64,000 bases of DNA from Psammoneis japonica (lineage: Eukaryota). The stretch is from positions 124,001 to 188,000 of the forward strand of contig QPGO01000130.1 in NCBI GenBank assembly GCA_008632985.1, given 5' to 3'. Below are positions 113 through 55,329 of this stretch, one piece after another. Each line of letters opens with the position of its first letter. Positions within the stretch are counted from its first letter, which is position 1. The position numbers and the translations under genes were made by a program. A model generated the notes under the pieces. That model was not told the DNA's origin, did not search any database, and worked only from the letters and a program-made list of their open reading frames with translations.

Positions 113-997
113 GGCACTGCACATGGTTTACATCTTACATGGTTGTTGTTGCTGATATGAATTTTTATTGGTTAGTGTCACCAAGTGTGTGCTGGCTCAT
201 AAAAAAAACACCCACCAGCCAAACAAGAGTGTGGTGGGGGGACAGGCAACCAACTCTGTGGGGGGGCATGCCAAGGGCACTTTTCAGATGACAAGGGTGT
301 GCCAGCAGGACAGCGCATGAGCCAGAAAGTTTGAAAATTTGACAAAGAGTCTCAAATGACAACAATGGCAGCAAAGGAGATTCAACAATGTGAGGAAAAA
401 GCTTGGTGGGAGAAAAAAAAGTGGTGGCTGGTGCAGCGTCGCACAGCCAACGCTCAAATGATGACTTTGACTCTAGCCTCAGTCTCTGACTTCTTGGCAC
501 CTCTCTTTTCCCAGCTGGCCCACCACTGTGAGCTTGTGTTGCACTGACATGTGAGACCAACGCACATCTGCCAGAGAGTGTCCTCCAAGACTCTCTTGGA
601 CTTGCTTCGTTGGCGAGAAAGTTGCGCGCGGCACCATGTTGTCAAGGAAACAAAAAGTGTGCAGACAGCCTGGGGGCACTGGCTGCAGGTGCTCCTGTGG
701 AGCTGCTGATGAGAAAACTCAAATCTCAAAGCCAGCTCAATGATGTGGACAACAGACATTTTGTCAAGCCCCAGCTGTTGTGTGTGGTCACCAGCTGGCC
801 CTGCCCCAGCAGTGCCACAGCCCAAATGTGCTGCTGGCACCGTGCCTTGTTGTTTTGTTTGGGTTGTTGCTCACTTTTCCTGCAACACACATTTTAGTCA
901 ACTCCAGGGGGGGGGATGCTGTGTTTGCCATCAGAGGGCATGACACCAAGGCATGACACACTGACATCATCCCTGGGTGTGGCAAACAAGTCACTGC

Positions 998-1376
998 TGC
1001 AACATGCGTTGTCATGTGCGCATTGTGTGTGTGTGTCCACACATCAAATAAAAGCACATTTCAATCGCACGTCAATCGTGGGTTCGTACGAAGTGCAGAT
1101 CAGTCACACAGAAGTGATCGGATGTCGAGAATCGCAAATGCGATCGTACGATGATGTTGACATCTTGTGTGTCAATGTCAATCGCACCCGGACAATCTGT
1201 CATCACGATCATATTCTCCGAAAGGCCTTTTGTCTGTGGGAGCAGTGCAAAAGGTTTAGGCTGTTGAGAACCCGTTCGGAGAAACCCAAAATGATTGCGT
1301 GGAAATAATTCTTGTAATTTTCACCTTTTGAACTTCGTTCTACTTTCGTTTGCACTCGTTCTTCGAGCATGGTGCA
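998..1376 (+). repeat. 5' LTR
   Basis: TGCAACATGCG...GAGCATGGTGCA, colinear with 5796-6174. Confidence 0.93.
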
Positions 1377-1412
1377 TTGTGTGTGCACACCACAGAAGGC
1401 AATGAGTTCAAG

Positions 1413-2567
1413 ATGAAGCTTTCACCTCATGTGGCCAACGCCAAAACTTCGTTGAGGCAGGAGAAAATCGTCCCTCAACCGCTGGAATCGAACTCCGAGC
1501 CGAAGAGCCTCAAACCGAGCCAGTGCCTCAAGATGGAGCAACGTTTTCATCCCGAGAAGAAGGGTGGCCACACCCACACCATCAATGTTGAGCACTGCAA
1601 GAAACAAGGTGTCCCCAAGCTCATCGAATTTCTCAAGAGCTACGATCAACTTCCAGTGGGCCAGAATGTCAGGAAGCAATCTGATGAGTTTCGTCTCATG
1701 CGCATGTTGCTCCAAGGAGACGCTCTACGTGCTTTCGAGAATGCGGCAGCAAACCTTGAAGACGAATCTGCGGAAGGAAGCTTCGAGAAATGCCTGCAAC
1801 ATCTCACGAGGCATGTGTTTCCCAAGAACGCACTTTCGGTGCAGAAACGTTATTTGCGTCGTGATCTCAAGAAGCCGGAGTCCATGAAAGTACGCGAAAT
1901 TGCTGCTTGGGTCCAGGAAGTCAACGAAGACCTCAAGTTCTATCCTCCCTTTGAGAAGGAACAGAAGATCGAGGACGACGAGCTCAAGGACATCCTCTTC
2001 AACCTTGCACCTCGAAAGTGGCAGCGTCAGTCGACCGTCCAGGGTTTCGAAATTTTGAAACACACCCATGACGAGTTGGTTGAGTTCTTGGAGCGCCTGG
2101 AGGTCGCAGAAGACACATTTGATGGCATTCATGCCAAGGCTGATGGCAGTGGCGGCACTGCATCAAAAGCCAAGAGTGGTTCCCAACGTGGTTCCAAAAA
2201 TGGTCACCAACATGGCACCGAAAAATCTCAGTCCGAGAAGTGGTGCATTTTGTGCGAGAAATCCACTCACAACACGGACAAGTGCTGGTCGATCAAAAGA
2301 CTTGCGAAAGAACGCCGTGGGAACCATGAACCCGACCCGAAACGGCGCCGTTCAAATGGCAATCACACGTGGTCTCGTCGCGATAACGACAACGCCGCTC
2401 GCAAAGAAGAGTTGAATGCCATGGCGATCCAAGCAGTTCAAAAAATGCTCAAAGCGAGTTCTTCGAACAATGATGAAAAACACAAGAGCAAAGATTGTGA
2501 TTCTGACACCCTTGACGAGGAAAATTGTCAGTTTGAAAAAATGACGCGCAGTGACTCTGAGGAATGA
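1413..2567 (+). CDS. gag: Gag of the Gypsy element
   Basis: Long ORF (first ATG at 1413) with the CCHC zinc knuckle CILCEKSTHNTDKC, directly after the 5' LTR. Confidence 0.85.
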   Translation: MKLSPHVANAKTSLRQEKIVPQPLESNSEPKSLKPSQCLKMEQRFHPEKKGGHTHTINVEHCKKQGVPKLIEFLKSYDQLPVGQNVRKQSDEFRLMRMLLQGDALRAFENAAANLEDESAEGSFEKCLQHLTRHVFPKNALSVQKRYLRRDLKKPESMKVREIAAWVQEVNEDLKFYPPFEKEQKIEDDELKDILFNLAPRKWQRQSTVQGFEILKHTHDELVEFLERLEVAEDTFDGIHAKADGSGGTASKAKSGSQRGSKNGHQHGTEKSQSEKWCILCEKSTHNTDKCWSIKRLAKERRGNHEPDPKRRRSNGNHTWSRRDNDNAARKEELNAMAIQAVQKMLKASSSNNDEKHKSKDCDSDTLDEENCQFEKMTRSDSEE

Positions 2568-5500
2568 CTTGCACTGCAAGAGGAGTCTTGCGCTCTGCTG
2601 GACATTAGGAAGCCCAGAAAAAGGGCCAAAGTAATTCACACTAGTCCAGCAGTCGTCGCCTGTATGAGTGCTTCATTGGGCAAGGCGAAAAATGAGCCTC
2701 TGCGCGTTCTCCTCGATGGCGGAACATCGTCAACCACAATTTTGCGCAAATTCACGCGGAAACTCAGAACAAAAGCATCCGCCACCAAACTCTGGGAAAC
2801 CAAAGGAGGGCTCTTCATGACTGACAGTCGATGTAAGATCCAATTCTCCTTGCCCAAATTTGACAAACACAAGATGATTGAAACAACGGCATGTGTTGAC
2901 AACTCCCCTTCTTCTTTGAGTCGTCATGACATGATCATGGGACGCGACTTAATGTCAAGTCTTGGGACAACATTGGACTTCTCGAATGAAGAGATTAAAT
3001 GGGAAGATGCAACTGCTCCTGTGAAGAATGTTGACACACTCTTCGATGCCAATGTTTTTAAGTTGATTGCCGATCACATTGAGGAATCTCATGCAGTGAT
3101 TGGTCTTAATGACAGGGTCAATCGGATCCTTGACTCAGACCATCACGCTGCAAACCTCAACAATGTGACCGCAGCAGCCACTCATCTAACTCCTGAAGAG
3201 CAGAAGCAGCTGAATTTCCTCTTAAAAAGATTTGAAAACCTTTTCGATGGTTCTCTGGGCAAATGGACCGGGAAACCGGTGGATTTAAAGTTGAAATCGG
3301 GCGTGAGTCCGCATCATGCCAAACCATTTCCCGCACCACAAGCCTTGGAGGCGACTGCTCGTAAGGAGGTTGAAAGACCATGCAAGTTGAAAGTCTTAAG
3401 AAAAATGAATTGTTCTGAATGGGCGGCTCCAACCTTCATTCAACCCAAGAAAAATGGTAGAGTTCGGCTCTCACCCGACTTTCGTGAGCCAAACAAGAGG
3501 TTAATTCGCACTCCGTTCCCTCTGCCCAACATTCAGGATGTGCTGCAGAAGCTCAAAGGCTTCATGCATGCAACGTCCCTAGATTTAAACATGGGACACT
3601 GTCATGTCGAATTGACGCCGCGTGCACGTCGCTTGTGCACGATCGTCATGCCTTGGGGCAAATGTGAGTGCTGTAGACTCCCGATGGGAATCTGTGGAGC
3701 TCCAGACATTTTCCAAGAGCACATGAGTGAGCTCATGGCAGGTCTGGAGTTCGTCAGAACTTGCATTGACGACACATTGTGTCTCACAAAAGGTGATTTT
3801 CAAGACCACCTCAAGAAGCTTGAAACGGTGTTCTTGCGCCTGGAACAAGCCGGATTGAAGGTCAACGCCGAGAAGTCCTTTTTCGCTAAACCCGAAGTAG
3901 ACCATCTAGGCTTTCATGTCACCCGCAAGGGCATCAGTCCGATTCCAAAAAAAAGTAGAAGCGATTCACGCGATCGCAACTCCTAAAACTCGCAAGGAAT
4001 TGCGACGCTTTGTCGGTGTGATCAACTGCTGTCGAGACATGTGGCCTCGACGATCTCATGTTTTAGCTCCTTTAGCCAAACTCACTTCTACCCAAGTAAA
4101 GTGGCAATGGACCGAAACAGAACAAAAAGCCTTCGAAAATGTGAAGCGCATCATCTCCAAAGACACACTGTCATCATGCCCGAATTTTAACATGCCCTTT
4201 GAGATGTGTGCCGATGCCAGCAATTCTCAATTGGGGGGCGGTTGTTGCTCAGAAAAACCGACCAATTGCCTTCTACAGCCACAAGCTGAATGGAGCGCAA
4301 ACGCATTGTGCTGCAACAGAAAAAGAACTGTTGTCCACAGTGGAGACGTTAAAAGAGTTCCGCAATGTGCTGTTTGGCCAACAGACAAACATGCACACGG
4401 ATCACAAAAATCTCACACACAAAAATTTCACAACGGACAGAGTCATGCGTTGGCGTCTAATGACAGAAGAACACAGTCCCAAAACAATGTACCTTGAGGG
4501 CAAGGCAAACATTGTCGCAGATGCGATCAGCCGACTTACCATGAAGAAAATAGAACCTGTGGAAACCCTCAGCACAGAAGAGCCAGCTGAAAAGGTCCCA
4601 CCAAAATCCTGCGACAATGTCTTTCCGTTAAATTACAAAGTTCTTGATCACGAACAAAAACGGGACAAAGACATTCTCTCCCAATTGTCAAATGAGACGT
4701 TTCACACGAAGACTTTTCGTGGAGGCGAGCGAGACCGGTTGCTCACATGTCACAAGGACAAAATTGTCGTCCCGAGGACGTTACAAAAGGCAGTGACAGA
4801 TTGGCATCATACGCACCTTCTTCACCCTGGCATAAATCGAACAGAAGAAACAATCTCACAACACCTGTGGTGGTCCACCTTGCGTGAAGACATACGAAAA
4901 TACGTGTCGAGATGTGAGACGTGCCAAAAATTCAAAAAGAAACACAAGAAATGTGGACATTTACCTCCCAAGCGCGCAGAATCCGTGCCATGGGAACGAC
5001 CATGTGTGGACCTCATTGGGCCATACAAAATACGTCGTAAGGGAAAGAAAAAAACCCCAGTCCTGAAATGTTTGACTATGATCGATCCAGCAACTGGATG
5101 GTTTGAAGTTGTGGAAATCCCAAACAAGGAGTCCACAACTGCAGCTGGACTGCTAGAATGAACATGGTCAAGTGGACATCCTTGGCCATCGTCAATTACA
5201 TGTGACCGTGGAAGTGAGTTCATCGGACACCAATTTAGAGAAATGGTGCAAGATGATTGTGGCATTAAAGTCAAGCCTGTGGCCACACGAAATCCACAAG
5301 CAAACGCAATTGTTGAACGCGCACATCAAGCACTGGGGAACATGCTCCGCACATTTGATTTGCAACATGCACCTCTAGACACTGAGGATCCTTTCGCTGG
5401 AATGCTGTCAGCGGTGGCGTTTGCGGCACGTTCTGCGTGTCATCCACTGCGCAAGCTGCGCCAGGACAATCAGTCTTCAACAGAGACATGACATTTGACG

Positions 5501-5769
5501 TCCAACATGTCGCAGACTGGAAATTAATCCAGCAGTGAAAACAAGAAATCATAAATAAAAATGACGCTCGAGAGAATGCTCGACGTGCTCCTTGCACGTG
5601 CAGAGTGGGAGAAAAGATGCCACTCGAGAAAGACTCGCAAAAATTAGAACAGCCCTGTGTTGGACCGCATGCAATGACAACGGCACATGCCAATGGCACA
5701 GCACAGATCAAACGCGGTAACGTCATTGACATTGTCAATGTTCGTTGAACAATGCCGTTTGACGACTGA
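2568..5769 (+). pseudogene. pol: Pol (protease, RT, RNase H, integrase), disrupted
   Basis: LLDGGTS protease motif. RT motifs WAAPTFIQPKK, SLDLNMGHCH, RLPMG and TCIDD (canonical YxDD). RNase H CADAS and EKELLS. Integrase HHTHLLHPG/CETC, VDLIGP and NPQANAIVER. Frameshifts near 3955 and 4237; internal TGA stops near 5159 and 5536. Confidence 0.93.
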
Positions 5770-5795
5770 CTCTAATGTGCAATTAGGGAGGCGAA

Positions 5796-6174
5796 TGCAA
5801 CATGCGTTGTCATGTGCGTGTTGTGCGCGCATGTCTGCACATTAAATGAAAGTGTGTTTCAATCGTGCGTCAATCGTGGGTTCGTACGAAGTACAGATCA
5901 GTCACACAGAAGTGATCGGATGTCGAGAATCGCAAATGCGATCGTACGATGATGTTGACATCTTATGTGTCAACATCAATCGCATCCGGACAATCTGTCA
6001 TCACGATCATGTTCTCCGAAAGGCCTTTTGTCTGCAGGAGCAGTGCAAAAGGTTTAGGCTGTTGAGAACCCGTTCGGAGAAACCCAAAATGATTGCGTGG
6101 AAATAATTCTTATAATTTTCACCTTTTGAACTTCGTTCTACTTTCGTTTACACTCGTTCTTCGAGCACAGTGCA
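5796..6174 (+). repeat. 3' LTR
   Basis: Colinear with 998-1376 and followed by the CTGC duplication. Confidence 0.93.
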
Positions 6175-6424
6175 CTGCTGCCCCACCGCAGCGCAGCGAG
6201 CGCGAGCGCACCGAAGGGAGGAGGGGGGACGGACAGTCCCGAATTTTGGGCGCGCCAAAAAATCAAAGGTGCGCCACTCCCTAGCGTTGAAAAGGTAACC
6301 AGGCTCTGACATTTTTGTAGAATCAAAGAGACGCACGTCATGATGAAACGCTTGGGAGTGGCATGCGAAGATCGCAGAATTTTTTGTCATCCACAAACCC
6401 AAAACACAAAAAAGAGCGTCCACC

Positions 6425-19298: not shown

Positions 19299-22200
19299 AT
19301 GGTAAGCTAAGGAAGAAACAGTCTCGTAAATCTAGAGAATCTCAAAAGGATGTGCAGCGCATGCACTTATTTTACATAGCACTGCCCTTTCATTCCATCT
19401 TGCCTGTTCTCTTGTGTCCTGGAACTTCGATCTCAGTGCTTCTGCCGAGTCCAGTGTGCATGTGGCTCCTTCCTGCAAAATGCATGGGGAGGCGAGTGAG
19501 AGGAACGGATCTGGTGTGTCCTTTGTGCAGCAGTTCAGTTTCGCATGCAGTCTCGCGTGCTGTTGGTGTCGCGCGCACGTTCCCGCTTTGCAGTTTTGCT
19601 CTCGAGCCTCATCATGGCTCGCAAGAACAACAACGGTGCCGACCATCAACGACTTTCATTTGTCAGCACCTGCAATGGATCCTAACCCTTGAACTGCCTT
19701 GCCTTGCCTGCTGCTTAAGATGGCAGCAAGGTGCACTGTTTCTTTCCAGCGATCATGTCTCGTTGGGCTCACGGCGCGTTGATGAGAGGGTGCTTGCAGC
19801 CCTCTCTGCAAGACCCACAGAGTTCAAAGCCTTGAGTGCTTTTTCTCCCTGCTCTTGCTCCTTGGAGTAATTGGGAAACTGACACATGTGGCCTCTGCAA
19901 CAAGCATGTCATCCTTTGCCAAACCAACAAGGGGGCGGGGTGGCCCCAAAGCAAAACTATCAAGCAACATCCAAGTTCTTGAGCTTCCCAGGATTTGGAG
20001 CAATTCTGTGTGGCAAGTGCAACATGCTCTGCAATGAGATGTGATGGGACAATCACTTTGTCACTGGGTTGTTTCTTCAGTGCAGAGTGCAACAGCAGAG
20101 CTGCCACACATGCTGAAAGCCATGGCCTTGTTGCCCGCCAAACACCACGTTGCTTGGAAAGCACAACATGGAGTTGATTGAGCACTTTCACAAGGGTGCC
20201 CAAGACGACAAACAATGTGCAACACATGTGGTGAGATTTGCAAACATTGCATGTGTTTGTGAAAGATTGGCGTGGACATGAGAGCAATGTGGGCGGGCTG
20301 CTGCATCAAATCTTGGTGGGGGCACAAGCTTTGGGAGAGTGGCCTCAATGTCCTTGCAGTTGATGAATTGTGGCAACAGCTCCCTTTCCCCTCCACAATG
20401 AAGGGAAGACTCTGCAAATTCCTTGACAAAAAACAGCCAGAGTCCATCTGGTGCAGGTTGTTGATCCTTGCACAGCTTGTCTGACTGGCCCACTGCCAGG
20501 AAGCAGTTGCAAGCAATGTGAGGCGCTGCCAGCATCCCCTGCCATTGACAATGACAAGGTTTGAACAGGATTTTTGTAGTGCATGATTTGTCACATGCTG
20601 TGTTTGAGCTTTGCCAGTGACTTTTGTTGGTTTTTGCACTTTCAAAGGTTGCTCTGGCACACCTGTTGGCATTGACTTTACTTTGCTCACTCATGAAGAG
20701 CTCTGAGAGCATCATCTTGGTCCTGCATGGCATCACTTTCCAATGCCACCAGTTGCTCTGTCTTTGCCCCATGAGTCACATCACAATGCTGGTCACTTGA
20801 TCTGCACTCTGGTGGACCCATCCCATGTCATTGGCCTGGCCATCTGTGCCCCAACAGGAGGCCCATCTCCACCATGCTGTTGGCCGCTGTGTCCTCGCAC
20901 CCTCCACTGAAAATGGTGACAAACTCTTTGAGAATGGCCGCCATGCCTCCTGCTGCATTGATGTTCCCTCTCAAGGACTGTGACAGCCTTGTCCAGGTGC
21001 ACATCTTCCAAGGCATGGATGTGCAACCCACCCCTTGTGTTGCACTCTCAAGCCTCTGTCTGACCAACTTGTTTGGGGCATGCTGCCCAAGTCTTCGAAG
21101 GCTGTCATTCTTCTTGAGCCCAAAAGCCCCCAGCTGCTGGCTTCACTGGTCAGCCTCTGTCACCCTCCATGACCTCTGTCTGGGGGGTGATGGCAATGTC
21201 ACAGGTCCCAACACTCCACTTTGGTTCCTGGACCTCCTGTGGCTGACCTTGCTGCTCCCGCACCAACACTCTGGCATGACAACTTGCATCTCACACCTCC
21301 TGAGATGGGGGGTCTCCTTTGCCCACTGTCAAATCCTGCCATGGCATGCATTGTTCACTTTGCCAGAGGAGAGATCAAGATGTCCAAGCAGCTTCATCAT
21401 GTTGAGTCACATGAAGGTCAATCAAAGACTTGTGATCCAAGTTGGGAAGACTGAGCTGTGGTGTCAAGAATGGGGAGATCACAGCCAAGCTGTGCTCCTT
21501 GCTGCAAGCACATCTTTGGCAATCTCTGGGGAGATGCAGCAGACCTTGCAATGGAGTTGATGGAAAAGTGCTCCATGGCCCACCTTTTCAACAAGTTCCC
21601 AGTTTGTTGTTCTGTCAAGATTGCCACCTGTGCTTCCAAGTCTGTTCCTGTCAGTGCTCCAAGTTGTCAGCATGATGTCACCTTTTGTGCAAGCACTGCT
21701 CTGCCCTTTCATCCCATCATCTCTGCTCTTTTGTGCCCTGGAACTTCTGACTCAAGTGCTTTTGCTGAGTCTGATGTTGGTCTGTTCCTGTTGCTCCCTC
21801 TCAAAGGCAATGAGGAGGGGCAGAATTTGAGCAGGATCCAGTTGTTCTCAATTTGTTGCATTCTGCATTCACTTTGTTGCACACAGGTTTGTTGCACACA
21901 GGCATTTGTGCTCTTGGCTCCATGCATTGTTGTGTGATTGTGATGCAGTTTTGCTCTTGAGCCACAAAGCTCACAAAAACAATGACAGCAACACCAATTT
22001 TATGATGCCCGTCTTTTGGCTCCTGCAATGGCCTGCCTCTGCATGGAGACTCCAAGAAGTCATTGACATTTTTTTCATCAGAGAAATTGCAACTTGGCCT
22101 CAATGTTCCTCCAATGCAGCAGCATGCTGGAGGAGGAGCAAAGACACTTGGCCACATGAGGGAGGTTGCACATCTTCCACAGCAGCAAGGCATCAGCCAG

Positions 22201-25200
22201 CCCCTCATCCACCATGCCAACTGTGACAAGGAGAGTGGTGCCAAACCACTGTAGTGTGGCAACAAGTGAGGAATGAAAATGCCATGTCCCTGCCACATCC
22301 ACAGGAAACTTGCCATTTCACAAGCACTCCACTGACCTGCAAGTGTTGCAGTGGTTTCACAAACACTTTTTCTGGAGACATGCAAGCTGACTCATTGAAG
22401 TTGATGCTTGGTTGTTTTCCTTGTTGAGCGTGTGTGCAGAGGGGTGAAAAACATGTTGAGCAGTCTTGAGAATGCTGCTGGGAGATGTTCCAAGATCCAT
22501 GCTGATCACCATTCATTGTTGCAGTGGCAAGCGGGTGGTTGTTTCTATCTTGCTGGTGACAGAGCATGGCTTCTTGCATGCTGGTGGGGGCAAAGAAGCA
22601 GGCTGTGCTGTAGCAGTCATTGTCTGTGACAGAGCTGGATGTTCCGTTGACCACACCATGCCTGTCAGTGCCCTGACAATGAGCCCAACCCACGGTGGGG
22701 GTGGGAGAAAGTGCAAATGTGAAGGACACAACCCCAATGTGTTGGTTTGTTGGGCACCAGGTGTCAACAACTCAGATTTTTGCAGAGCATGGAATGGCTT
22801 TTTTGTTGACAAACAAAGGAAGCTTAAAGCAGAGAAGTCCCATTCTCAAAGTTCTTAAAAGCTGGCCAAATGGGTTGGTGATGCAACAAGTGGTAAAAGG
22901 GAGCCTTCAGTTGTCTCAAATTGCTCCCAATCACTCTGAAAGTTCTGTTTGAACTCTTTTCTCACATCATCTCAAACCCCCTTCATGCCAAGGATTGAAC
23001 ATTTTCTGTCATGTTCCTTGTGGCTCCAAATCAATCACATGTTGCTCTTTGCTCATTCCTCACCAACACAACATTTTGTCACAGCCATCCCCATTGGACT
23101 GTTGAAGCATGCACAAACCACACATTGGATCAACCATTTCTGACATTTTCTCCAATTCTGTCACATCTGTGGTGTTGCCACAGACCACCCACTTTTTGGC
23201 AAGTGCGTGGGGAGCCAGCACTTCTTGCGGGCCTTGTTCTCCAGTGCACAGATCTGTCAGTGGTTGCTTCTGGACCATTTCCCCCCTCCTTTTGTCATTT
23301 GACATTTGTGGCATGCTGTCTGTCAACAAAGTGCTTCAGCACACACTGATTGCCATTCCTTCTGATTGCACAACACACACAACCATGATGCTTGTGACCC
23401 AGTTCCTCTGCACATGCAGAAATTGAGGGGTCATGCTTCTTGAGCCATTGACAGCCACCCAAAGCATCATTTTTCTTCACAACATGGAGAAAATCACATT
23501 TGTGAGCAGGTCCACCATGACACATTGTTCTTGTTGTGCTTGCAGTGTGGAGACAGCAGGGCACAATCAGCTGGCATCCATGGCACATTGTCCTTGTTTT
23601 GCTTGGAGCCTGGGGAGAGCAGGGCAGATGGGGTTGATGCAAGGTTCACTTGATTGGTGGTGCTGTTCCTGCAAGCACTGCAATGCTCTCTCACACACTC
23701 TTTAAAATCTTTTCAAAAGCACTCAGTGTTTTCCTTGATGTTGATTTTGTGGACATGGAGTCAGACAACAGTCTTTGTCTTGGGGTTGTGAAACAGGGTG
23801 ATTGGCAGATCTGTGCCCTGAGTGCTTGCAGTTGGCATGCATGCCAGGCAGGGCCAATGGCAGCAACTGCAGATGGAGCATGCTGCTCAGATGAAGCCCT
23901 GCTTGGTGGTGCAAGTGCTCTTCAATGCCTCTTGAAGAAAAGGCATGTCTGTCCAGCGCAGTTCAACAACATGTGGTCTGGCCATGCTTGTGAAGCCATT
24001 GAGCTCCATTCTGTTGTAGACTTGGTCATCAAGGTTGTTCACAAAGGTGCACTCTCTGCAGCACAGAAAGACAGTCAGAGAATGCTGCAATGACAACATT
24101 GCAGTTGTCATGATGCCAGATGACTGCAAATGACATGATGGTGCCATGCAGATGAGTGGCAGCATGGGCACACTTTGGCAAGAGCCTTGCGCAGATCATC
24201 TAGAAAGTTTGGGGCAACAGCCTTGAATGCTGGGTTCAGAATGAATTTGCAGCCAGTGTTCACAATGAGCCCATCAATCTGAGCACCTTTGAAGGTGGTC
24301 AGCAAAATGGCTTCTGCAGGGTTGGTGAAATCCATGCTCTGCAGGTCAAATGGTCAGATGACAGCATCAGCACAATCTGTTGTGCAAATGAGTTGTCATG
24401 ATCTTCCACAGTGAAATCCTCAACACAATTGCTTGGTGCTTCAAAAGTGCATGCATTGACTGGATTGTCAGAAATGTCATTTTTTCTGTCCCAAACTGCA
24501 GAAATTCCGTGCACTTGATGCACGATGCTGGACTTGTGGTGGTCATGAACAAGACAGACATCAATGGCTGAACGTGCACATTCACATCACATTTTATGTG
24601 TTCATGTGTGTGTGTTTGAGAGTGATGCACATGCTGATGATCATGGACAGAATTTCACGCCGGCCGGCTGGGACAGAAAAATGACAGGACAGAAAACTGG
24701 TTGGATGGGATGGAAAAATAAATGGGAGGGCTTGATTGTTGGCAGCACTGACAAATGGTTGATCAATCATGGGGAGGTGCATGAAGAATGAAATGGCAGG
24801 GTTGGTGACTGACTTGTCAAGACCAGATGAGCCAACGCTCCCTTTCATCTTGATGCACATCACTTCACTTTGGCAACTGCTGCCAACGGGTCCATCTTCA
24901 AAAGGTTCTTTGATGACACCAGCAGCTTGGTGAGTGCAGTTGTTGAGAACAGTGTGACAGATGTTGTGATGTGACATGATGACAAAATTGGAAGGGTCAG
25001 GCAGCAGTGACTTGCCTGCATGCTTGTGCTTTGCAACCGATGTGTCAACAAGGCCAGCAGAGTTGTTGCACAGCATGGCCAGGCAATCTGACTTGGTGAG
25101 GCTGCATGAGTTGGGTTTGGTGCTCTTGTTGAACTGGAAAGCCAGGCATTGCTCAGCATTGCCAGTGTCAGGAGAAATGGCTGGGCACATGAACACAAAG

Positions 25201-26899
25201 CTGTGTCCTTGAGCACACAACACATCAGCGTGCTTCTTTGGGATGAAGGTCTTGGACAGAGGGCCAGCCAGGCATTTGTTTGACTGGTGCAAGATCTTGG
25301 GATTCTTTTGACAGCAGATCCACCAAGTCTCCATGTTCAACATGTGATGCATTTGTGACAGAGAAGGCTGAAGAAACACTGAAAAGCTGAGCACATGGCA
25401 AAAGCAAGTCTGCTGCTGTGGTGAGATGAAACAGTGGTGAGAAGAAGCAACCAAGAGTGGTTGGCAAGTGTCAACAGTCAATGGTGTCGGGATGACAATG
25501 TGCACAATGAATGTGATGAGCTCTCCACTTTTGCAACTTCCAGCCAGCACCCCTCTCTCTTTGCATGACACTGGCCAGTGCTTCTGGCATTGCCCCTGAT
25601 TGGGGGTGGGATTTTGCACTCCACTCAAATGAGTCTAGCTGGTCCAGTCTTCCAGTGGATGAAATGAGTTTAGAGCAGTGCAAAAAACAAGAACAATCAA
25701 CTCTTGTCATCACTGTGGCCACATTTGAGCCATGTGACCAGAACAAAGTGACACAGAGAGCAACCTCACAATGTCCCTTCAATTGGTGGCTGGCAGAGAT
25801 GATGCCCCTCCTTTTTGTTCACAAATTCATCAGGTGTGACGTGAGCATGAACAACATGACACAAAGGGACCTTCACAGCACCCAACTTTTCCAACAACAA
25901 GTCCAAGAATGCATCCCCATGTGAGTCATGACCCCAAGGTTTGAACTTTGCCAAATTGCCAGCTGTTGCAGTTGTGCTGTCCCTTTTTTTCTTAACATGC
26001 TCAAACAGACTAGCAACTGCAAAGCACCTGCAGTTGCATCAGCAGCTGCCAACTCACAACCATGTTGCTGCCAATCATGAATTCACCATGCCTGCACTTG
26101 ACATTGGCACAAGCTGCCAAATGCTTGACCATCTCCATGTTGTCTGTGTAAGATTTCACAACTCTGGCATCCTCAAGCATTTAAAAGCCTTCATTCAAAG
26201 GAATGCAAGTGTGCCAAACTGCCAAACTCACACCACATGATCCCTGCAAAACACATGTCAACATCAGGTGGCTCAGCTGCTGTTTGTGCTGCAACAAGCT
26301 TGTGTTCCATTCATGCAAGGGCAGCAGCCAGCATGTGTCCTGCATGCTCCTGCACTGTTCCACATGGAAAGGATGCTGCAAGAACAGGGTTGCAAGCCAA
26401 CTCACACTGTGAGCTGATTGGACTCTGTGTGGACATGGTCAGATGCACCAGAGCTGTGCATCCATTTTCATGCAGAGAGAACAATCATTTGCACATGAAT
26501 GCATGTGCCAGAGGCTGCATGAGCCCATGCCACACATGACATTTTCAGTGTTTGCATTTCTGTCACCCACTGCCCATGACCTTGCTCTTGTGCTCTCTCG
26601 ACATCGTTCACTGGCATTTCATGGATGGGCCACTTTTCCCCAACCTTGCCATCACAGCATGTGTCTTGGCTCTGACAAAGCAAGCAAATCTGGCTGGACT
26701 CTTGCCTTCCAGCAGATAAAAAAGCCCAGAACAGTGCAAAGCACAACCAATGGTTGTTGTCATGATTGCCAAATCTGAGCTGTGGTCAGATCAGAGACAC
26801 GGAGAAAAACCTCATGACATCTCTTTGCATTGCTGGACACAGGACAGGCTGCCTCTAAATTGCAGTTCTGAAGCAAGGTGCAGTTTGTTTCTTTTGGCT

Positions 26900-27495
26900 G
26901 CAAGGTGGTTTACAAGCCAGAAATCTGTGTCCCATTTGCCTCATTCATTGGCCAGTGCAACAATTTTTGTGCGACAAAGCAAGGAGAGGAACAAATGATG
27001 TGCCCTTGATTCTTGACAATTCATTGTACACTGAGCTTTTGGAATGTGCAAAAGCAAACACATTCATGTTGCTCTGTCAAAAGAGGAAACTTGTGCACTG
27101 TTCTTTGGCTCATTTGGGTTGTCCAACATGGCCAAATGACTTGTCATCTGCCCAGGGCCTGTGGCATGAGTGCTGTTGCAGTTCTCTGCTCAATTGTTTC
27201 TTTTGGCTGTGAGGTGGTTTACAAGCCAGAGACCTGTGCCTCATTTGCCTCATTCATTGGCCAGTGACACAATTTTTGCCTGACAACCCAAGGAGGAGCA
27301 AATGATGTGCCCTTGCTTCTTGACAATCTGCTGCACACCAAGCTTCTGGAAGAATGTAAAAAAGCAAACACATTTGTGTTGTTCTGTCAAAAGAGGAAAC
27401 TTGTGAGCTGTTCTTTGGCTCATTTGGGTTGTCCAATGCAATCAAATGACTTGCTGGCCACCCAGGGCCTGCTGCATGAGTGGCATTGCAGTGAG
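26900..27495 (+). repeat. Diverged tandem duplication, unit about 310 bp
   Basis: AGGTGGTTTACAAGCCAGA...CCCAGGGCCTG occurs near 26903 and again near 27212. Confidence 0.85.
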
Positions 27496-28624
27496 CTCTC
27501 CACTCGGCGGATCTCATTCTTGCACTCAATGCCAGTTAGATTGCCATGCTGTGCTGTTGCTGCATGTCACACAGCCTTCAGACAGACAGAATGCCATGAA
27601 GCACGCACCACACGCATTTGCAATTTCAGTGTTTGTTGGATCGAGACTGGCTGGATTGTGGATTGATCATGGATTGTGGCAAAAATGAGCACACCACGGC
27701 TTTTTGCAATCTCTTCTGAAAATCACAATGGGAAAAGTCAAAAAAGTGCACCTCGTGAGTGGCTGCATCAAGTGCACTTGGTGCACTCATGCACAATTCT
27801 GCACAACTCACACACGGCGTGCAAACCAACAGATTTGCATGAATTTGCCCTGTGAACCTGTGAACGGTTTTTGATGTTGGGTCAAGTTTAGTTGCATGCA
27901 ATGTGCAGGGATTTGTGCCAAGTTCTAGCAGGACTCAGTGTTGGACAACAACAACAATTGCCTCTGCACAGGGCCTCAGTGCAGTTTCACACAAAGTGTG
28001 CTTGATTTGATCAATCGCCACCTGCACAGAAATGTGCAGAACATGCACCAACAACCTTCCCACTCTGGTTTTTTGGGTACTTGGTTGCAATCTAAACAGT
28101 GCCAAAGACCAAAGCAATTGACCACAAAAGCTTTTACATCATGCAGCATTGCAAAACACACCATGGAATTTTGGGTGAAAAACAGGGTTGAAATTGATGG
28201 CTCTGCTGGTGTTTTTGATTGTAAAGCAAAGTGCAGTTACGTGGAAATGTGCAGAAAATGTGCTGACCTCCTAAATCTTCACTTTTTGGCTGCTCTGGTT
28301 GCAATCAAAATAGCACCAAAAGACCAAAGCCATTGATGCAAAACACTTTTACGGAAAATGGTAAATTGCATGACAGAACTTTGGGAGACAAAATGGTTGT
28401 AATTGATGGCCATGATTGAACTGATCAAATGGAACACAAAGTGCACTTAAATTGCCAAAAAAGTGCACTTGCAACTGAAAAGTGCACTTACAACTGAAAT
28501 TGCACACAGAAAGCTGTGCAGAGATCTGGCACACAAAAATGGGCACACTTGAGTGCACTTGTTTGTCTTTCCTCCATTGCAACTCTTGGCATTGACACTG
28601 AATCACAACTGCTGTTTCTTCATC

Positions 28625-29990
28625 ATGCCTGCCTGCATTGACAACAATGAGAAGAGGAAAAAGGCGGCATTGATGTTGGCAACAAAGAAAAAGTCGCTGT
28701 GGACACAAGAACTGCAATGGATCTGATGCATGCAAAGAGCTGATTGCAGGTCTCAAGCTCTTGTTGACTGTCACTTCCTCTCATGATGCCCCTGATCCAT
28801 TGACTCCATGTCAACCAATCAGCTCTGCAGATTGGACTGCAACCAATCTGCCATCCAAACATCAGATTCCTCTAGATCTCATGCTTTCATCAACCACCAC
28901 GTCCTCCACCGGCAGCTGTGCTCCTGCTCCAATGACTCCAGATCAGCCAATCAATGAAAAGGCAACAAAAGAACAACGTGCTAAATTGGCACGTGAATTT
29001 GTTGTAAAAAAAGAACTGGGCATCTCTTGCAATGGGCTGGATGATGCTGGCATGTTGCGGGCCAATCGTTTGATGTCAAAGGATTGTTCTTGGAGTCCCT
29101 GCCAGGATGAAGTGGATGGTCATGGGGAGACCACCTTTTGAGAGCAATTTGAGCTGCGCTGTGAAGAATGCCCTGATTGGGAAGATCTCTCTCAGTTCTT
29201 CTTTTAAGATGATGAGGATGGAATTGATGACTGTCTCATCATTCTCCAGCTGAGAGCAGGCTTCTGCTTTGTGCATGCAGTTGCAGTCTGTCAGCATCAT
29301 TTGCAATGCAAGCAAAATGCCAGTCAAGGAAAGAACCATGAAATGCTTGACCTTTTGTGGTGTGTTCATGAATGTTTCTCCAGAAAGAAGCTCAAGAAGT
29401 TCCTGCAGAATGGAGGTGGCAGATCAGCCACTGAGTTTCTTTGTGAGATCATGGGTGACAGCCTTGATGCCATTGCGGCTGACATGATTGCAATTCCAAT
29501 GAAATCAGGGTGGGAGCTCAGCTTCAATCTAACCATGGAGACAATTTGCAGCATTTTTGAGCATCAACGTGAACCAGCTCTTGTGTTGGGATTCAAAATT
29601 GAAGAAGACTTCAAGACGTCAAACAAATTCATGTGCAATGATGAGGTGGATGAGAATGCCTTTCTTGATTGTGGCAAAAAACAGCAAGGACGAGGGTGTT
29701 GTTGTGCTTCATTCGATGGTCCTGCCGGGGCTGCACAAGGATGAGAAAGCTGGCAAGGTTTGGTTTTTGCTGCAGAACTTTTGGGCAACAAAGCATTTGA
29801 CAGTTGTTTCTGGGGAGCATTTGGCCTCCTGTCATGCAAAGATTGCATTTTTGTCACTGGGATGCAATGTTTCTCTGGCAGAGGAAATGGAGGTAATTGA
29901 CGCTCACTGCTCTGAGACTGAAACCACAATGGAAGAGGAGCACAAACCCTTTCCAGATGAGACAGATGTGTGGCCAGCACCAGATTGGGT
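28625..29990 (+). pseudogene. Decayed papain-fold (peptidase C1-like) gene
   Basis: Fragments in changing frames: QLRAGFCFVHA (Gln/Cys region) and LHSMVLPGLHKD...WFLLQNFW (His/Asn region). Confidence 0.55.
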
Positions 29991-32900
29991 TGCAAGGGGA
30001 TCACAGTGTTTTCTGTCATGCTTGCTTTTTGTTGTGCCACTTCAATTGGTTTTGTCATGTCCAGTTGTCTGGTGCTGTTCATGAGGAGACCTGCCAGCAT
30101 TCGTGCATCTTCAAGCTTTTAGACTCCAGTGCTGGTGACAGCAAAATGCACATGCATCTAAAAATGATTTGCAGGTGCCATCCCGGTGACATGTGAGCAA
30201 AATTCAAGTGCCCATTTGAGACAGTCACACCCTTGCTGCCTGATGATTTGTTGGTTTGTGTCTCCCCCCCCCCTCCCACCCAGCAAGGACAACAAACAAC
30301 CATTCAAACCAAGGTTGCAGAACAAACATTCTTCCCAGATCACACACCACACATGGCAAGCCACATGAGAACTCATCAGACAATCTCATCAAATTTTCCC
30401 CATCTTCTGCAGTTTTGTGTGTGCAAACATCACATTTCTTCCATTGCACACATGGCTTTCATGCATTTGCCACAGGTTGGAAACTGGTGCATCTTGCAGG
30501 CATGTCTGGGCCACTCCTTCCTCATGAAGAAACTCAACAAGTGCCAGAAAAAATCATCCATCCCAGGGTCCTCCCCCACCCCACCCCCACAATTTCCTTC
30601 CACTGCACACATTTTTGGGGTTCCCCTGAGCTGCAATGGGCTGCAACAAATGAAAGAAAAAAGAAGGCCAATGAGCAGTGGCTCACACATGTCAACACTT
30701 CAAAGTGGCCCTGCCCAGGCTAGGACCGCAACCACAATGCAAGCCACTTTGAAAGTTGCTTTTGCCATTCCAGGGTCAACAAACATGGCCAAATGAAAAT
30801 GTGAAACGAGCCTTGCCTCTTGTTGAGCACAGCTCTGCACAAGAGCCATGTCCACTGCCGCCGTCAGAGGAGGAGCCCACAATTCCAGCCTGGACAACAG
30901 GAAACTCCAAAGGGGTGAATGTGGTGGAGAGTGCCACCCTGCAATGTCATGCCTCTTCTGGAGCCAATCTGCCGGGGAGAACAGGGTCTCCTCAGGCTTG
31001 CCAGAGCAGCTCCTCACCCGCTCTCCTGCACAGGAGCACTGGGGGTCTCTCTGCCCCCCCCCCCCCAAGGTGCAGGGGTGTGAAGGAGAGCAAGCATTTG
31101 CCCTCCATCACACCCTCTGTCAACACGCGTTCAACCTGGTAAATGGCAAGAAGCGTTCTGATGAGGAAACTGTTCTGTGCTGTGCAGCCAGCAGAGATGT
31201 CTTCAAAGAATCCTTCCGAATTCTTTGAAATTTCGGCATATGTCCGGTCACGTAGGTAGCTCCGAGTTTATGAAAAAAAGAAGAGGAAAAGGAGGAGGGA
31301 GGCGAGGAGAGGAGAGATGCACATTCTCCGTAGTGCTTGCAATGCGTTTAGCACGCACGACGCCCAGACGATTAGCGCTTCCGACGTGCGTAGCTAGTTA
31401 GCGCAGTCGCAGCTATCTACTCTACTCTAGCAAACACTGTAAAGAACAGCGACATGCCATGATCTATCTAAATACATTATCTACTGCTTCATTGCTCACG
31501 GAAAATTTACACCCCCACTGCTGACGCTACCGTTGAGATGCAACCGCACGATTAGCCAAAACTCCATCAAGTTCCTCTCTAGACCCGACTAGATTCGGAA
31601 AGTTCCAGAAACAGATTTCCCCAAAACAACAAATAGTATCAAAAGACTTATATCATGTAGAACATTGGCCCAGAAAGCCATTGTAAGCTTTAGCAGTCAA
31701 AGATATTCACACTGGAAAATGACAGGCAAAATGAAAATGTGACTGGAACAACGTACACAATAACAATCCATTGGGATCACACATCACAGTATACTCATTA
31801 GGGCACCTTTTAGAGGGAGAGCTGGGTCTCCTTCCCAATTTTTATGCTCCCAAGTACCACCAGCGGTTCGTGGGATCCTTGCATCCAAGAGGAGGCGATG
31901 AGCCCGCCAACACAAGCCTCAACCTCCCCATTTTACCCATTGCAAAGCCTGGACTAGTCGGCACACTACCAAGATCTCCCCACATAACCTGGATAATATT
32001 GTGTCTTAGATGATGAAGAGAATCGACTGTAGAATAGGAAAAAAGGCTCATCATAGACCAGACACCTGCACGCATGAACGAGACGCACAAAAAAAAGGCT
32101 CGTGAGGTATGCAAGTTTCGTCAAAACGAGTCCAACACTCAAACAATTAAACACACTCGTAGGATTACCTTTTTTGGACTATGATAAGACTGTCTGACAA
32201 TTTCCAACGTCGTAAGTGTCCTCCAGGCTCCATCGCGTCGTTTTGTTCCAACGGCATGCACTTTCCAAAAATTGTGACGGCCGAAACACGACATGCCGTG
32301 ATTATGTGCCGACCAAGCCCCCAAGAAGGATATCAAGCGCGTCACAAATCCACATTAATATACATAATAGGTACACCAAAGGATGTAGAGTGGGATGAAG
32401 CATAAAGATCCCAAACGGATGCGCTCTGGCGGCGCCAACGACTTGAAAAACATTCCAACATAATAGACACCATAATCGACCGTACGAGACGATCCATCCA
32501 CTTTTCAAGCTGTAACAAAAAACAACAATGGTCTTTAGCAAATATGAAAACGAAATAAAACGAGAAAATATAAAAAAACTTACCTCGGCGGCGTTGTCGA
32601 CCAGTCAGATGTTACCCGTACCGTGCCGTATTTGAGCTACGAGTCGAGGCACGCAACCGTTTATAGCATGTGCAGCAACCAAAGCACCCCAGGAGACCAA
32701 ACCAATGCATCAACCTCTTTATAACAACAATAGAAAGAGATCAACCACGGAAAATACGTCTACCCCACGATGCATGCCATGGCGAGATGCATCAAAGTGC
32801 AATGTGCATGGCCGTTTCTTACGGTGCGGTATGCCAAATCGAGAGCGTTTGAGTGGAATGAAGAAAATGAAGAGGATTCCTCCTCAGGCGTCCTTATCAA

Positions 32901-36300: not shown

Positions 36301-37340
36301 TGATGATTGCATGGCAATTGAGTCACTCATTGTGGAAATCTTGCATGCAAAATGCCTTGTCATTGGTGCATGTGATGTGTGAATCAGCTCCACACCACAC
36401 TTTCATGCAACCATGACCATGGGCAATGAGCTTGCACTGCAGGCTCCAATTCTTGATGACTCCAACAGCCTTTTGAACAAAGTGTTCTTTCTGTCATTGC
36501 AAGGTTCTTGTTTGCAACAAGCGCTGAGACAACATGAGCTGTGCAAACATCACACATTTTCTTTGGGATTCCATCAAACTTTAATCAGATTCTGAAGTCA
36601 TTGTGTTCACATCTTTTTGCATTTTTTCTTTTTCAAAACATGCCACCCCTTTTGTCACTGCCTGTTGGACAGCAATCTTGATCACCCTGGGCAGGATTGC
36701 TCACATGGGTTGGCCAATCAGTTGTTTTCTCTTTCTAAAATTTGGAACTGATGCCCAGCTTGATGAAGTGAATCCTGGTTTTTGGGCAGGTGCAATTGGT
36801 GAATTCTTTTGTGACATGTTGCTGGATTGAACACCTGTCACAGCTGGAGTTCTCTTGTGTTGTCAATGCCATTCCTGGCCTTGTTTTGGACCAACAGGAG
36901 GTGCACTCATCTGCACTTTGGTGTTCAAGGCATCTGTCAACAAGCCTTGGTCAGGAAATGAGGAGTGGCACATTGAGGCACAGATTACATTGTTTTTGCA
37001 ACAGTCTTGTGCACAACATTGTGGACAGTGGTTGCATCAACTGCAATTGCTCTGGCTGTTTGAAGACTGGAGCATGTTTGAGGACAGTGCAAACCAGCCC
37101 AACAGGAGCACAGCAGCTTGCTTTGGCACTTTTCTGTGATGGCTGCAACTCCTGCAAAAAGGTTGGATCAAAACTCTTGTTTCTTTTTGTTCCCAACCAA
37201 GCATGCATTCAACCTCTGGCAAATGGCAAGAAGCACTCTGATGAGGAAATTGTTTGGTGCAGCACTGTGGCCTCAGCCACTGGAGCAGAGACATTTTCAA
37301 AGATTTCCAAATCTTTGAATTTTGTGGGGGCAGTGCACAA

Positions 37341-37523
37341 GCAACCATTTCCTGCACTTTTTGCTGTCCTCACAACCTGTGAGCACTGGGCCCCACAGTG
37401 GAACCCCATGTGAAAATGTGGCAAGCAAAGGGCAACCATTTCCTGCATTTTTTGCTGTTTTCACAATGTGTGAGCACTGGGCCCCACAGTGGAACCCCAT
37501 GTGAAAACATGGCAAGCAACGGG
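37341..37523 (+). repeat. Tandem repeat, 2 x 91 bp
   Basis: GCAACCATTTCCTGCA...GAGCACTGGGCCCCACAGTGGAACCCCATGTGAAAA...GGCAAGCAA at 37341 and 37432. Confidence 0.9.
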
Positions 37524-37599
37524 CTCACTGCCCTTTGGTCAATGACTCATCCATGTGGCCTCTAATTGAACCAAGAGTGACTGTTCTCAACAACACCAT

Positions 37600-55310: not shown

Positions 55311-55329
55311 TTCACCAAGCAACCACTCA

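Follow-up and report, generated by a model that had tools for sequence, protein, structure and literature searches.

Two long terminal repeats (LTRs) of a retroelement in the 64-kb window (the whole stretch of DNA that was analysed) differ repeatedly at sites where one copy reads TG and the other CA. This raises the question of which dinucleotide was ancestral at these sites, and whether the changes arose before or after integration. We consider that post-integration TpA to TpG/CpA hypermutation of a singly inserted Ty3/gypsy element probably explains the LTR pattern.

The element and the differences between its LTRs

The direct repeat at the element ends aligned as an LTR pair over 379 columns without gaps (Table 1). 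The element was a single insertion, because its LTRs have TG...CA ends, the 4-bp duplication CTGC lies on both sides and a purine tract precedes the 3' LTR. The duplication on both sides also means that the LTR differences are younger than LTR synthesis. With TG...CA LTRs, a target duplication, a polypurine tract and the order reverse transcriptase, RNase H and integrase, the element belongs to Ty3/gypsy, and its nearest relatives were gypsy-type pol proteins (best identity 61%). It is a dead LTR retrotransposon. The presumed gag frame closes with an in-frame TGA (2565-2567) immediately 5' of the pol frame. The RNase H/integrase part is split over two overlapping frames (3910-4497 and 4145-5161) and is therefore frameshifted, and an in-frame stop precedes the integrase core remnant. 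Neither a gag domain (Pfam) nor a primer-binding site was recognised in the element.

Table 1. Positions of the element's parts and of the TA/CG-poor blocks in the window
Feature	Position	Strand	Evidence
Target-site duplication CTGC, left copy	994..997	+	same 4-mer flanks both element ends
5' LTR, 379 nt, TG...CA ends	998..1376	+	direct repeat
Densest LTR differences	1021..1069	+	16/28 differences, site contexts
Presumed gag frame, 411 codons	1332..2567	+	no Pfam match
pol frame with reverse transcriptase	2568..3986	+	Pfam RVT_1 E=4.5e-15
RNase H and integrase zinc-binding domain	3910..5161	+	Pfam RT_RNaseH, RT_RNaseH_2, Integrase_H2C2
Integrase core remnant	5162..5491	+	weak rve match E=0.006, under Pfam cut-off
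Polypurine tract AGGGAGGCGAA	5785..5795	+	read from sequence, immediately 5' of 3' LTR
3' LTR, 379 nt	5796..6174	+	direct repeat
Target-site duplication CTGC, right copy	6175..6178	+	same 4-mer flanks both element ends
Block nearly without TA and CG	20001..31000		TA o/e 0.00-0.18, CG o/e 0.03-0.19
Similar TA/CG-poor blocks	1-997, 35001-43000, 49001-56000, 58001-64000		composition

Classification of every mismatch, a check that the original prediction had suggested, gave 28 differences in the 379 columns, all of them transitions and none a transversion. Nine steps were reciprocal, with TG in one LTR and CA in the other (starting at 1021, 1032, 1038, 1055, 1057, 1068, 1176, 1237 and 1370). Six further steps were TA/TG, one was TA/CA, two were CG/TG (1028 and 1030), and a C/T difference at 1187 fell outside these classes. 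The TA-derived classes accommodated 25 of the 28 differences, which bears out the claim that nearly all of them are TA/TG, TA/CA or reciprocal TG-versus-CA pairs, and each of the nine word pairs quoted with that claim was found in its place. Differences at 1021-1039, 1068-69, 1176-77, 1187 and 1237-38 were absent from that earlier list.

Pyrimidine-purine steps, covering 208 LTR positions, carried 27 of the 28 differences, and the remaining 171 positions carried one. The unchanged steps comprised 24 CG/CG, 6 TA/TA, 28 TG/TG and 28 CA/CA. When 28 random transitions were placed on the LTR in 20,000 simulations, reciprocal TG/CA steps averaged 0.38 and reached at most 4, against nine observed. 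For rough comparison, the terminal repeats of related gypsy contigs from metagenomes (28 pairs) showed 289 mismatches (184 transitions and 105 transversions), with two reciprocal steps. The probable ancestral TA steps in the densest segment include TATA at 1055-1058, and this segment may be a TATA-like promoter region.

Direction and rate of change

The Tyr codons of the coding part gave the TA to CA/TG polarity independently of the LTRs. Of the 16 Tyr codons (TAY) in pol that are conserved among relatives, 14 now read CAY (His) or TGY (Cys), with no other outcome, and two were kept, while conserved Arg was retained at 20 of 22 positions. The pol frame with the reverse transcriptase contained no Tyr among 472 residues, whereas the median Tyr content of 120 relatives was 3.7%. 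Every conserved Tyr in this frame had become His or Cys, that of YxDD (codon 399) among them, and so had 5 of 7 in the RNase H/integrase part. At the Tyr192 codon (3141-3142), the element has CA and the family majority TG. Going by the codon, this is a reciprocal difference at a provably TA-derived site.

A likelihood model of the LTR steps also favoured TA. With TA as the ancestor of the reciprocal steps, the fitted rates were q_TA 0.66 per copy and q_CG 0.039, and logL was -33.94; with CG as the ancestor it was -54.84, so that the TA model was better by 20.9 log-likelihood units. The homogeneous TA model expected 3.2, 12.6 and 6.2 intact, single-hit and discordant sites, whereas 6, 7 and 9 were observed (chi2 6.2). 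This imperfect fit means that site-rate differences or coupled hits are needed. The two LTRs together kept 24 CpGs intact, with two single-hit CpGs, so CpG decay cannot supply nine double hits. Under this model, which polarises them indirectly, the nine reciprocal steps would all derive from TA.

The family, with 5,032 contig pieces matched to the element, provided further states, which were taken from the best 40 of 1,120 variant rows (family contig pieces over the element). In these best 40 rows, the family majority at 1045 was T (866 of depth 995), and therefore TA stood there. The family showed C at 6111, also in the best 40 rows, so that TA, TG and CA all occur at one site. Family-wide, the variable places comprised 970 transitions and 149 transversions. 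The best-supported private differences between the element and its family (best 40 of 1,120 rows) were CG-derived in 12 cases and TA-derived in three, an excess that is expected if most copies lost their TAs independently and is no proof. At 1201-2/5999-6000, both LTRs have CA and almost the whole family has TG, so some TG/CA flips are older than the insertion. Where family states were visible in the best 40 of 1,120 rows, family CG at the reciprocal sites and ancestral TG at the TA/TG sites, the pattern named in advance as contrary to TA ancestry, was absent. The original prediction that TA was ancestral is therefore supported by the Tyr losses (14/16), the intact CpGs, the likelihoods and the family states at 1045 and Tyr192.

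Set against the single difference in 171 positions outside pyrimidine-purine steps, the fitted values of q_TA and q_CG place the TpA per-site rate hundreds of times above background and more than 10 times above CpG decay, in relative and not absolute terms. A high per-site rate acting on integrated DNA had been claimed, and the values of q_TA and background, together with the single insertion, agree with it. If TA ancestry is assumed, the 5' LTR hits read CA, TG, CA, CA, CA, CA, CA up to 1068 and TG seven times from 1095. Both polarities thus occurred within one LTR (6 CA, 8 TG), in four runs among 14 hits (runs test P=0.028), and the 15 mutated Tyr codons formed five polarity runs (P=0.051). 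The hits tended to fall in strand-coherent patches, with marginal statistics (P about 0.03 and 0.05).

Composition pointed the same way. TA o/e was 0.24 and CG o/e 0.93 in the whole element, and 0.22 and 0.87 in its interior, whereas 78 related metagenome elements had a minimum TA o/e of 0.59 (median 0.77) and a median CG o/e of 0.985. An apparently intact host ORF had a TA o/e of 0.29, and therefore low TA by itself is not diagnostic in the window.

Proposed process and competing explanations

We propose that the element inserted once, and that after integration TpA was converted to TpG or CpA by A:T to G:C transitions. The step TA is palindromic, so TG results when one strand is hit and CA when the other is. 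Opposite-strand hits at one ancestral TA, one in each LTR, would give a reciprocal TG versus CA, and a TA hit in one LTR alone would leave a TA/TG or TA/CA difference. The strand-coherent patches would fit an enzyme acting in episodes on one exposed DNA strand. The likeliest agent may be a DNA adenine deaminase preferring a 5' T, with inosine then pairing with C; alternatively, a modified thymine might mispair with G. Slower CpG decay works on the same DNA, so old targets would end without TA and CG, as in half of the window.

Methyl-CpG deamination also acts on a self-complementary dinucleotide, turning it into TG or CA depending on the strand, and independent copies can likewise differ reciprocally. 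The reciprocal sites could then have been CpG, with methylated cytosine deaminated on opposite strands and the TA/TG sites a minor second step. Such decay is active in the window. It was seen at the two CG/TG sites of the LTRs and at 12 interior sites with family CG, now TG or CA, and it fits as the depleting process of the old blocks (CG o/e 0.0-0.25). CG written into the reciprocal sites makes 1021-1069 plausibly CpG-rich, and site 1032-33, which adjoins both CG/TG sites in a run reading CGCGCA in the 3' LTR, may itself be CG-derived. However, a CpG hit rate near 0.04 per copy predicts about 0.03 discordant double hits against the nine observed, and CG ancestry needs extra steps for the seven TA/TG or TA/CA single differences in addition to its poorer likelihood. 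At 1066-1071 it would require three adjacent CpGs of which the central one was hit in both LTRs and the outer two in neither. The interior kept its CG and lost its TA, and the Tyr codons prove TA to CA/TG change within the element. Methyl-CpG decay covers at most two or three of the 28 LTR differences. We rejected it as their cause, given the 24 intact and two single-hit CpGs and the likelihood deficit, and regard CG ancestry as unlikely.

Slightly less probable again is an explanation without targeting, in which a context-dependent mutation bias made TA and CG drift to TG/CA genome-wide, with selection keeping TA and CG in genes alone, or two copies were joined by chimeric assembly or recombination. 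The stripped half of the window does include DNA without a recognisable mobile-element domain, and the great abundance of the family makes misassembly possible. Genic bins, in contrast, kept a CG o/e of about 1.0 and a TA o/e of 0.4-1.1, silent sites included, with sharp block borders, and this favours regional targeting over a uniform pressure. If a uniform bias were to give a q_TA of 0.66 at a background of 1/171, it would also strip the silent sites of genes. The matching 4-bp target duplication (chance match 1 in 256) favours one intact insertion, and TA-specific transitions are not a product of sequencing errors.

Knisbacher and Levanon reportedly described in 2015 the traces of APOBEC3/ADAR hyperediting that endogenous retroviruses and retrotransposons carry. 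These enzymes edit cDNA or RNA ahead of integration, with a strand bias, and their scars are common to both LTRs. The element shares with them clustered, strand-coherent, deaminase-type scars, but its own are not the same in the two LTRs and lie on both strands. Pre-integration editing of RNA (ADAR-like, with a 5'-U) or of single-stranded cDNA, leaving the LTRs unequal already at insertion, was the most improbable of the graded alternatives. LTRs are finished at different times in reverse transcription, and editing of late cDNA might in principle split them; some states shared across the family (most copies have TG at Tyr192, for example) indicate that hits can pass to copies. ADAR and TadA prefer A-to-G changes with a 5' T/U, as stated in the main text of a recent preprint (bioRxiv 10.64898/2026.01.13.699255). 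The same text describes Bigelowiella natans mutations that appear in resident single-copy DNA during culture, in some of the lines and not in others, which argues against a pre-integration origin (bioRxiv 10.64898/2026.01.13.699255). An edit in the RNA reaches both LTRs and cannot set them apart, and one-strand cDNA editing does not predict both polarities in each LTR. Having lost 14 of 16 conserved Tyr, that of YxDD included, this copy was unable to make its own cDNA, and non-retroelement DNA of the window, such as GUN4-like tandem pseudogenes, showed the same TA loss. We rejected pre-integration APOBEC/ADAR editing because the edits distinguish the LTRs and each LTR has both polarities, in line with the earlier claim that the RNA intermediate was not edited.

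Fungal RIP, a transition-only, dinucleotide-specific hypermutation of repeated or mobile DNA that is strand-coherent per event and kills coding capacity, resembles the present case in its transition-only, dinucleotide-specific hits on mobile DNA, in strand coherence and in the lost coding capacity, but it was rejected because its chemistry is opposite: RIP turns C into T, chiefly at CpA, and so generates TpA, whereas here TpA was destroyed and G:C gained (TA o/e 0.24 for the element, 0.00-0.18 for old blocks), as the Tyr codons also show.

Depleted blocks, host genes and related hypermutation

Across the window, 33 of 64 1-kb bins had a TA o/e of at most 0.2 together with a CG o/e of at most 0.25. 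In the block at 20001-31000, TG plus CA was roughly doubled and sequence complexity was normal. The TA/CG-poor blocks read as old, saturated target DNA; they contain the GUN4-like tandem pseudogene pair. No mobile-element domain was found among the 48 ORFs in 19.2-63.0 kb (of 68 ORFs of at least 150 aa in all). The higher TA and CG of the genic bins extended across whole kilobases, and their borders with the stripped blocks were sharp at the 1-kb scale. Expressed host genes appeared to be spared, with conserved Tyr retained at 12 of 12 positions in the UCH gene and 2 of 2 in a sulfotransferase-like ORF. The best matches of the host-gene proteins were 43-57% identical, and all six named eukaryotic matches were diatoms.

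The element's signature matches TpA hypermutation of integrated DNA as in B. natans, on a new target. All 28 LTR differences were transitions, 25 of the 28 fitted TpA if the reciprocal steps derive from TA, and the rate was far above background. In mutation-accumulation lines of that alga, integrated viral DNA underwent TpA to TpG/CpA change at a rate near 6e-7 per site per generation, and TpA-depleted CDS were enriched for reverse transcriptase, according to the main text of the preprint (Mettrop et al., bioRxiv 10.64898/2026.01.13.699255, 2026). The system described there and the one seen here have in common that TpA to TpG/CpA transitions alone occur, orders of magnitude above background, that nuclear-resident DNA is their target, and that tracts poor in TpA and rich in TpG/CpA are left behind. 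The B. natans activity is described as episodic, and the patchy hits on the gypsy element fit this. The main text concerns an NCLDV or virophage insert and de novo mutations seen in culture, whereas here the target is a Ty3/gypsy LTR pair and the process was read from sequence scars alone. TpA depletion, at 33 of 64 kb in the window, is far more extensive than that text reports for B. natans. The TpA-poor blocks of the window also lack CpG, on which the main text is silent; the words "CpG", "LTR" and "retrotransposon" do not occur in it.

Literature searches for targeted A:T to G:C hypermutation at TpA found the B. natans preprint and nothing else, and a search aimed at diatoms found no report of TpA hypermutation. 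The same signature now appears on a retrotransposon, apparently in an algal lineage other than the chlorarachniophytes. With the LTR pair there is proof that the hits post-date integration, and their rate can be set against CpG decay and background in the same DNA. The end state is visible in the stripped half of the window, and it matters for annotation: with TAA and TAG gone, long spurious ORFs appear. If general, the process would be a second chemistry for eukaryotic genome defence by mutation and a hint of a natural DNA adenine-editing activity.

As a tentative extension, which we hold with clearly less confidence than the account of the LTRs, a stramenopile (diatom-like) alga may run TpA-directed genome-defence editing that mirrors fungal RIP. 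The editor would be a single-strand DNA adenine deaminase or an activity equivalent to it; it would target silenced mobile and duplicated DNA in strand-coherent episodes and drive complete TA loss. Tyr codons and TAA/TAG stops would then vanish from targets, and with CpG decay kilobase blocks having neither TA nor CG would result. If the host is unrelated to Bigelowiella, the system would be ancient or would have arisen more than once, and LTR pairs would serve as a genome-wide clock and strand map of TpA editing.

LTR differences within the element

At either end of the element stands one copy of a 379-nt direct repeat, and the two copies align gap-free. Each LTR starts with TG and ends with CA, an identical 4-base flank (CTGC) lies on both sides, and a purine tract stands just ahead of the 3' LTR. 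Between the LTRs, Pfam domains follow the order reverse transcriptase, RNase H and integrase zinc-binding, and then a weak integrase-core remnant. Judged from these sequence features, the element is a single insertion of a Ty3/gypsy-type LTR retrotransposon. In-frame stops and a frameshift disrupt the pol region. Between the frames of gag and pol, which share one phase, lies a lone TGA; it may be either a native read-through stop or the product of a hit (a mutated TA or CG step). The nearest proteins in searches of a large collection were gypsy-type pol sequences of at most 61% identity, and these protein searches yielded no close copy of the family. A degenerate LTR pattern had no match among metagenome contigs. 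In the contigs of one public run containing the element, the family was very abundant, with 5,032 aligned contig pieces varying by transition at 970 places and by transversion at 149.

The LTRs differed at 28 of 379 positions, and every difference was a transition. All nine LTR word pairs quoted in the original prediction were found, and alignment and classification of the mismatches confirmed the pattern it described: nine reciprocal steps, in which an ancestral dinucleotide is now TG in one LTR and CA in the other, and seven TA/TG or TA/CA differences. The 208 positions in pyrimidine-purine steps carried 27 of the differences, and the remaining 171 positions carried one. When 28 transitions were placed at random in 20,000 simulations, reciprocal steps had a mean of 0.38 and a maximum of 4, against the nine observed. 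In 28 of 78 related metagenomic gypsy contigs, terminal repeat pairs had 289 mismatches, made up of 184 transitions and 105 transversions, with 2 reciprocal steps; since assembly overlaps may account for some of these pairs, the contrast is a coarse one. The stretch 1021-1069 held 16 of the 28 differences; on the TA reading this stretch was once A+T-rich, and the TATA of the original prediction lies within it.

Features of the element and of the window, with step counts for the LTR pair
Feature	Position	Count or content
Element	998-6174
LTRs	998-1376 / 5796-6174
TG vs CA (reciprocal)	LTR pair	9 steps
TA vs TG	LTR pair	6 steps
TA vs CA	LTR pair	1 step
CG vs TG	LTR pair	2 steps
Outside the listed classes	LTR pair, 1187	1
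CG in both LTRs	LTR pair	24
TA in both LTRs	LTR pair	6
Lone TGA between gag and pol	2565-2567
Stripped blocks	1-997, 20001-31000, 35001-43000, 49001-56000, 58001-64000	TA 0-14 per kb, CG 0-16 per kb
Sulfotransferase-like ORF	43910-45091 (+)	TA o/e 0.29, CG o/e 1.12
Sulfatase gene	46419-47612 (-)
Tandem 260-nt units	54118-54636	2 units
GUN4-like frames	59105-59605 (-), 60420-60995 (-)
Repeat bearing the GUN4-like frames	59175-60568 / 60565-61956

Ancestral state of the mutated steps

The original prediction took TA as the ancestral state. TAY codons are the only codons for Tyr, so conserved Tyr positions polarise the changes from outside the element; no close family or host protein was found, and this polarisation therefore depends on distant relatives. 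Compared with 120 relatives, the pol frames kept 2 of 16 conserved Tyr residues (0/9, 0/3 and 2/4 by frame) and 20 of 22 conserved Arg residues. All 14 Tyr losses, including that of the YxDD motif, were to His (CAY) or Cys (TGY). The reverse transcriptase frame had no Tyr in 472 residues, against a median of 3.7% in the relatives, and a ubiquitin hydrolase gene of the host, elsewhere in the window, kept 12 of 12 conserved Tyr residues. The observed/expected ratios (o/e) of the element were 0.24 for TA and 0.93 for CG; in 78 related elements, the TA ratio was at least 0.59 (median 0.77) and the CG median was 0.985.

Alternatively, the nine reciprocal sites might once have been CG and have changed by ordinary methyl-CpG decay, which we regard as improbable. 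Twenty-four LTR CpGs were intact in both copies and two were mutated in one copy only. In models that assume independent hits, a TA ancestor of the nine sites gave a log-likelihood of -33.94, with per-copy hit rates of 0.66 at TA steps (q_TA) and 0.039 at CG steps (q_CG), and a CG ancestor gave -54.84. At 1066-1071, the CG reading requires the middle of three adjacent CpGs to have mutated in both LTRs while its neighbours survived in both; the TA reading gives CGTACG, a hexamer found intact twice elsewhere in the LTR. The site at 1032-33 is more favourable to CG, as it adjoins both CG/TG sites and may derive from CG. The TA model itself fitted imperfectly, with 3.2 intact, 12.6 single and 6.2 discordant sites expected against 6, 7 and 9 observed (chi-square 6.2), which implies colder TA sites or hits in the two LTRs that were not fully independent.

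Family states were taken from the best-supported 40 of 1,120 variant rows. Among these, 866 of 995 depth at 1045 supports T, which makes TA the state of the family there and the CA of the 5' LTR derived. At 3141-3142, in the codon of Tyr192, the same 40 rows give TG for the family and CA for the element copy; 119 of 120 relatives carry Tyr at this residue, and the site is provably a reciprocal difference of TA origin. At 6111 the family has C, with no well-supported change at 6112 among the rows listed, and we infer three states at this one site: CA for the family, TG for the 5' LTR and TA for the 3' LTR. The 40 rows also bear out CpG decay on the element, with 12 interior sites at which the family has CG and the element TG or CA. 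These are about 5% of the element's CpGs, in agreement with q_CG from the LTRs. Together, the Tyr codons, the composition, the CpG state and models of the LTRs and the family states support TA ancestry, indirectly so for the nine reciprocal LTR sites. The best explanation, and a probable one, is that TpA-directed A:T to G:C hypermutation struck the element after integration while ordinary CpG decay also went on.

Timing, strand pattern and known systems

Edits made in RNA pass into both LTRs, so RNA editing cannot explain differences between them. Hits of both polarities were present in each LTR, and a copy that had lost the catalytic Tyr could not reverse-transcribe itself. For these reasons the LTR differences must have arisen on integrated DNA, which bears out the predicted timing and supports the proposed high-rate process. 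APOBEC and ADAR scars in retroelements, by comparison, are made before integration. Some flips are older than the insertion, as indicated by CA in both LTRs at 1201-2 and 5999-6000 against TG in almost all of the family, and by TG in the 3' LTR at 6098-9 against CA in the family (best 40 of 1,120 rows for each). Hits were thus also inherited along the family tree.

With TA ancestry assumed, the 5' LTR shows in order CA, TG, five CA and then seven TG, so its 14 hits form four runs (permutation P=0.028). Fifteen mutated Tyr codons read five His, four Cys, one His, four Cys and one His (five runs, P=0.051). These marginal statistics suggest that hits may have occurred in strand-coherent patches. 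A transcription-coupled strand bias was considered because the polarity in the 5' LTR switches at 1068-1095, downstream of the inferred TATA, but was rejected, as the transcribed interior is patchy, with both polarities. Per copy, a TA step received about 1.1 hits, compared with one difference at 171 other positions over two copies; as a rough figure with one background event behind it, the TA rate was a few hundred-fold above that of other positions. Candidate agents are a DNA adenine deaminase and a thymine modification.

Literature searches on TpA-directed hypermutation yielded one relevant paper, a preprint of 2026 about Bigelowiella natans. It reports that two integrated viral regions in mutation-accumulation lines mutate about 1,000× faster than the remaining genome, almost exclusively by A-to-G or T-to-C changes that are always at TpA, and that the mutations are restricted to some lines; TpA-depleted predicted coding sequences are enriched in reverse-transcriptase and DDE domains, and an ADAT2-like deaminase is proposed (bioRxiv 10.64898/2026.01.13.699255). 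The signature in the window matches this description. However, the signature here lies on an LTR retrotransposon that carries an internal clock, its extent differs, and CpG is lost alongside; the text of the preprint (bioRxiv 10.64898/2026.01.13.699255) has no mention of CpG, LTR or retrotransposon. The host also seems to be different, since its genes were 43-57% identical at best although the B. natans proteome was expected in the collection. TpA hypermutation of the element would add to a kind so far described, in the literature searched, in that preprint alone. In function the closest analogue is fungal RIP, which works in the opposite direction and creates TpA by C to T change at CpA. In one of the 120 pol relatives, the environmental protein P0150, 8 of 11 conserved Tyr residues are now His or Cys and the Tyr content is 0.6%, so the TpA process may occur in other organisms or populations. 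None of the 78 related metagenome loci was TA-poor.

Composition of the window

Across the whole window, o/e was 0.25 for TA, 0.52 for CG and about 1.55 for TG and CA. The distribution was bimodal at the 1-kb scale: 33 of 64 bins had TA o/e of at most 0.2 and CG o/e of at most 0.25, with TG+CA about doubled. Depletion of TA and CG was correlated across bins (r=0.81). Genic bins had CG o/e of about 1 and TA o/e of 0.4-1.1, and genic DNA met the stripped blocks, which are nearly free of TA and CG, at sharp borders. The blocks are of normal sequence complexity. On our reading they are old targets that reached saturation, with the slower CpG decay catching up later. That they are old transposons is an assumption, and Pfam found no mobile-element domain in 48 ORFs of at least 150 aa at 19.2-63.0 kb (68 ORFs scanned in all). 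Two other repeats in the window had 4 reciprocal steps among 34 mismatches and 9 among 47.

The host genes scanned had long frames without interruption, and the named eukaryotic matches were diatoms in 6 of 6 cases, which also fits a host other than B. natans. Protein searches found no identical host protein, the best matches being 57% (partial length) and 43% (full length). The sulfotransferase-like ORF, whose named relatives are diatoms, kept 65 of 67 conserved residues and both of its conserved Tyr residues, so low TA alone was rejected as a mark of hits. A sulfatase gene neighbours this ORF.

One stripped block contains two decayed GUN4-like frames in tandem, borne by a 1.39-kb duplication with 97.4% identity. 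One frame kept 24 of its 46 conserved residues and the other 20 of its 35, and the substitution pattern was mixed and uninformative. The pair derives from the host, not from a retroelement, and has the same TA and CG depletion.

The window contained 288 TAA, 244 TAG and 1,392 TGA trinucleotides, and 92 open frames of at least 150 aa in six frames. Because TGA is nearly the sole stop left in stripped DNA, long frames stay open in all six frames there and form a trap for gene callers. Another stripped block carries two tandem 260-nt units that are 99.6% identical, a recent duplication without new hits.
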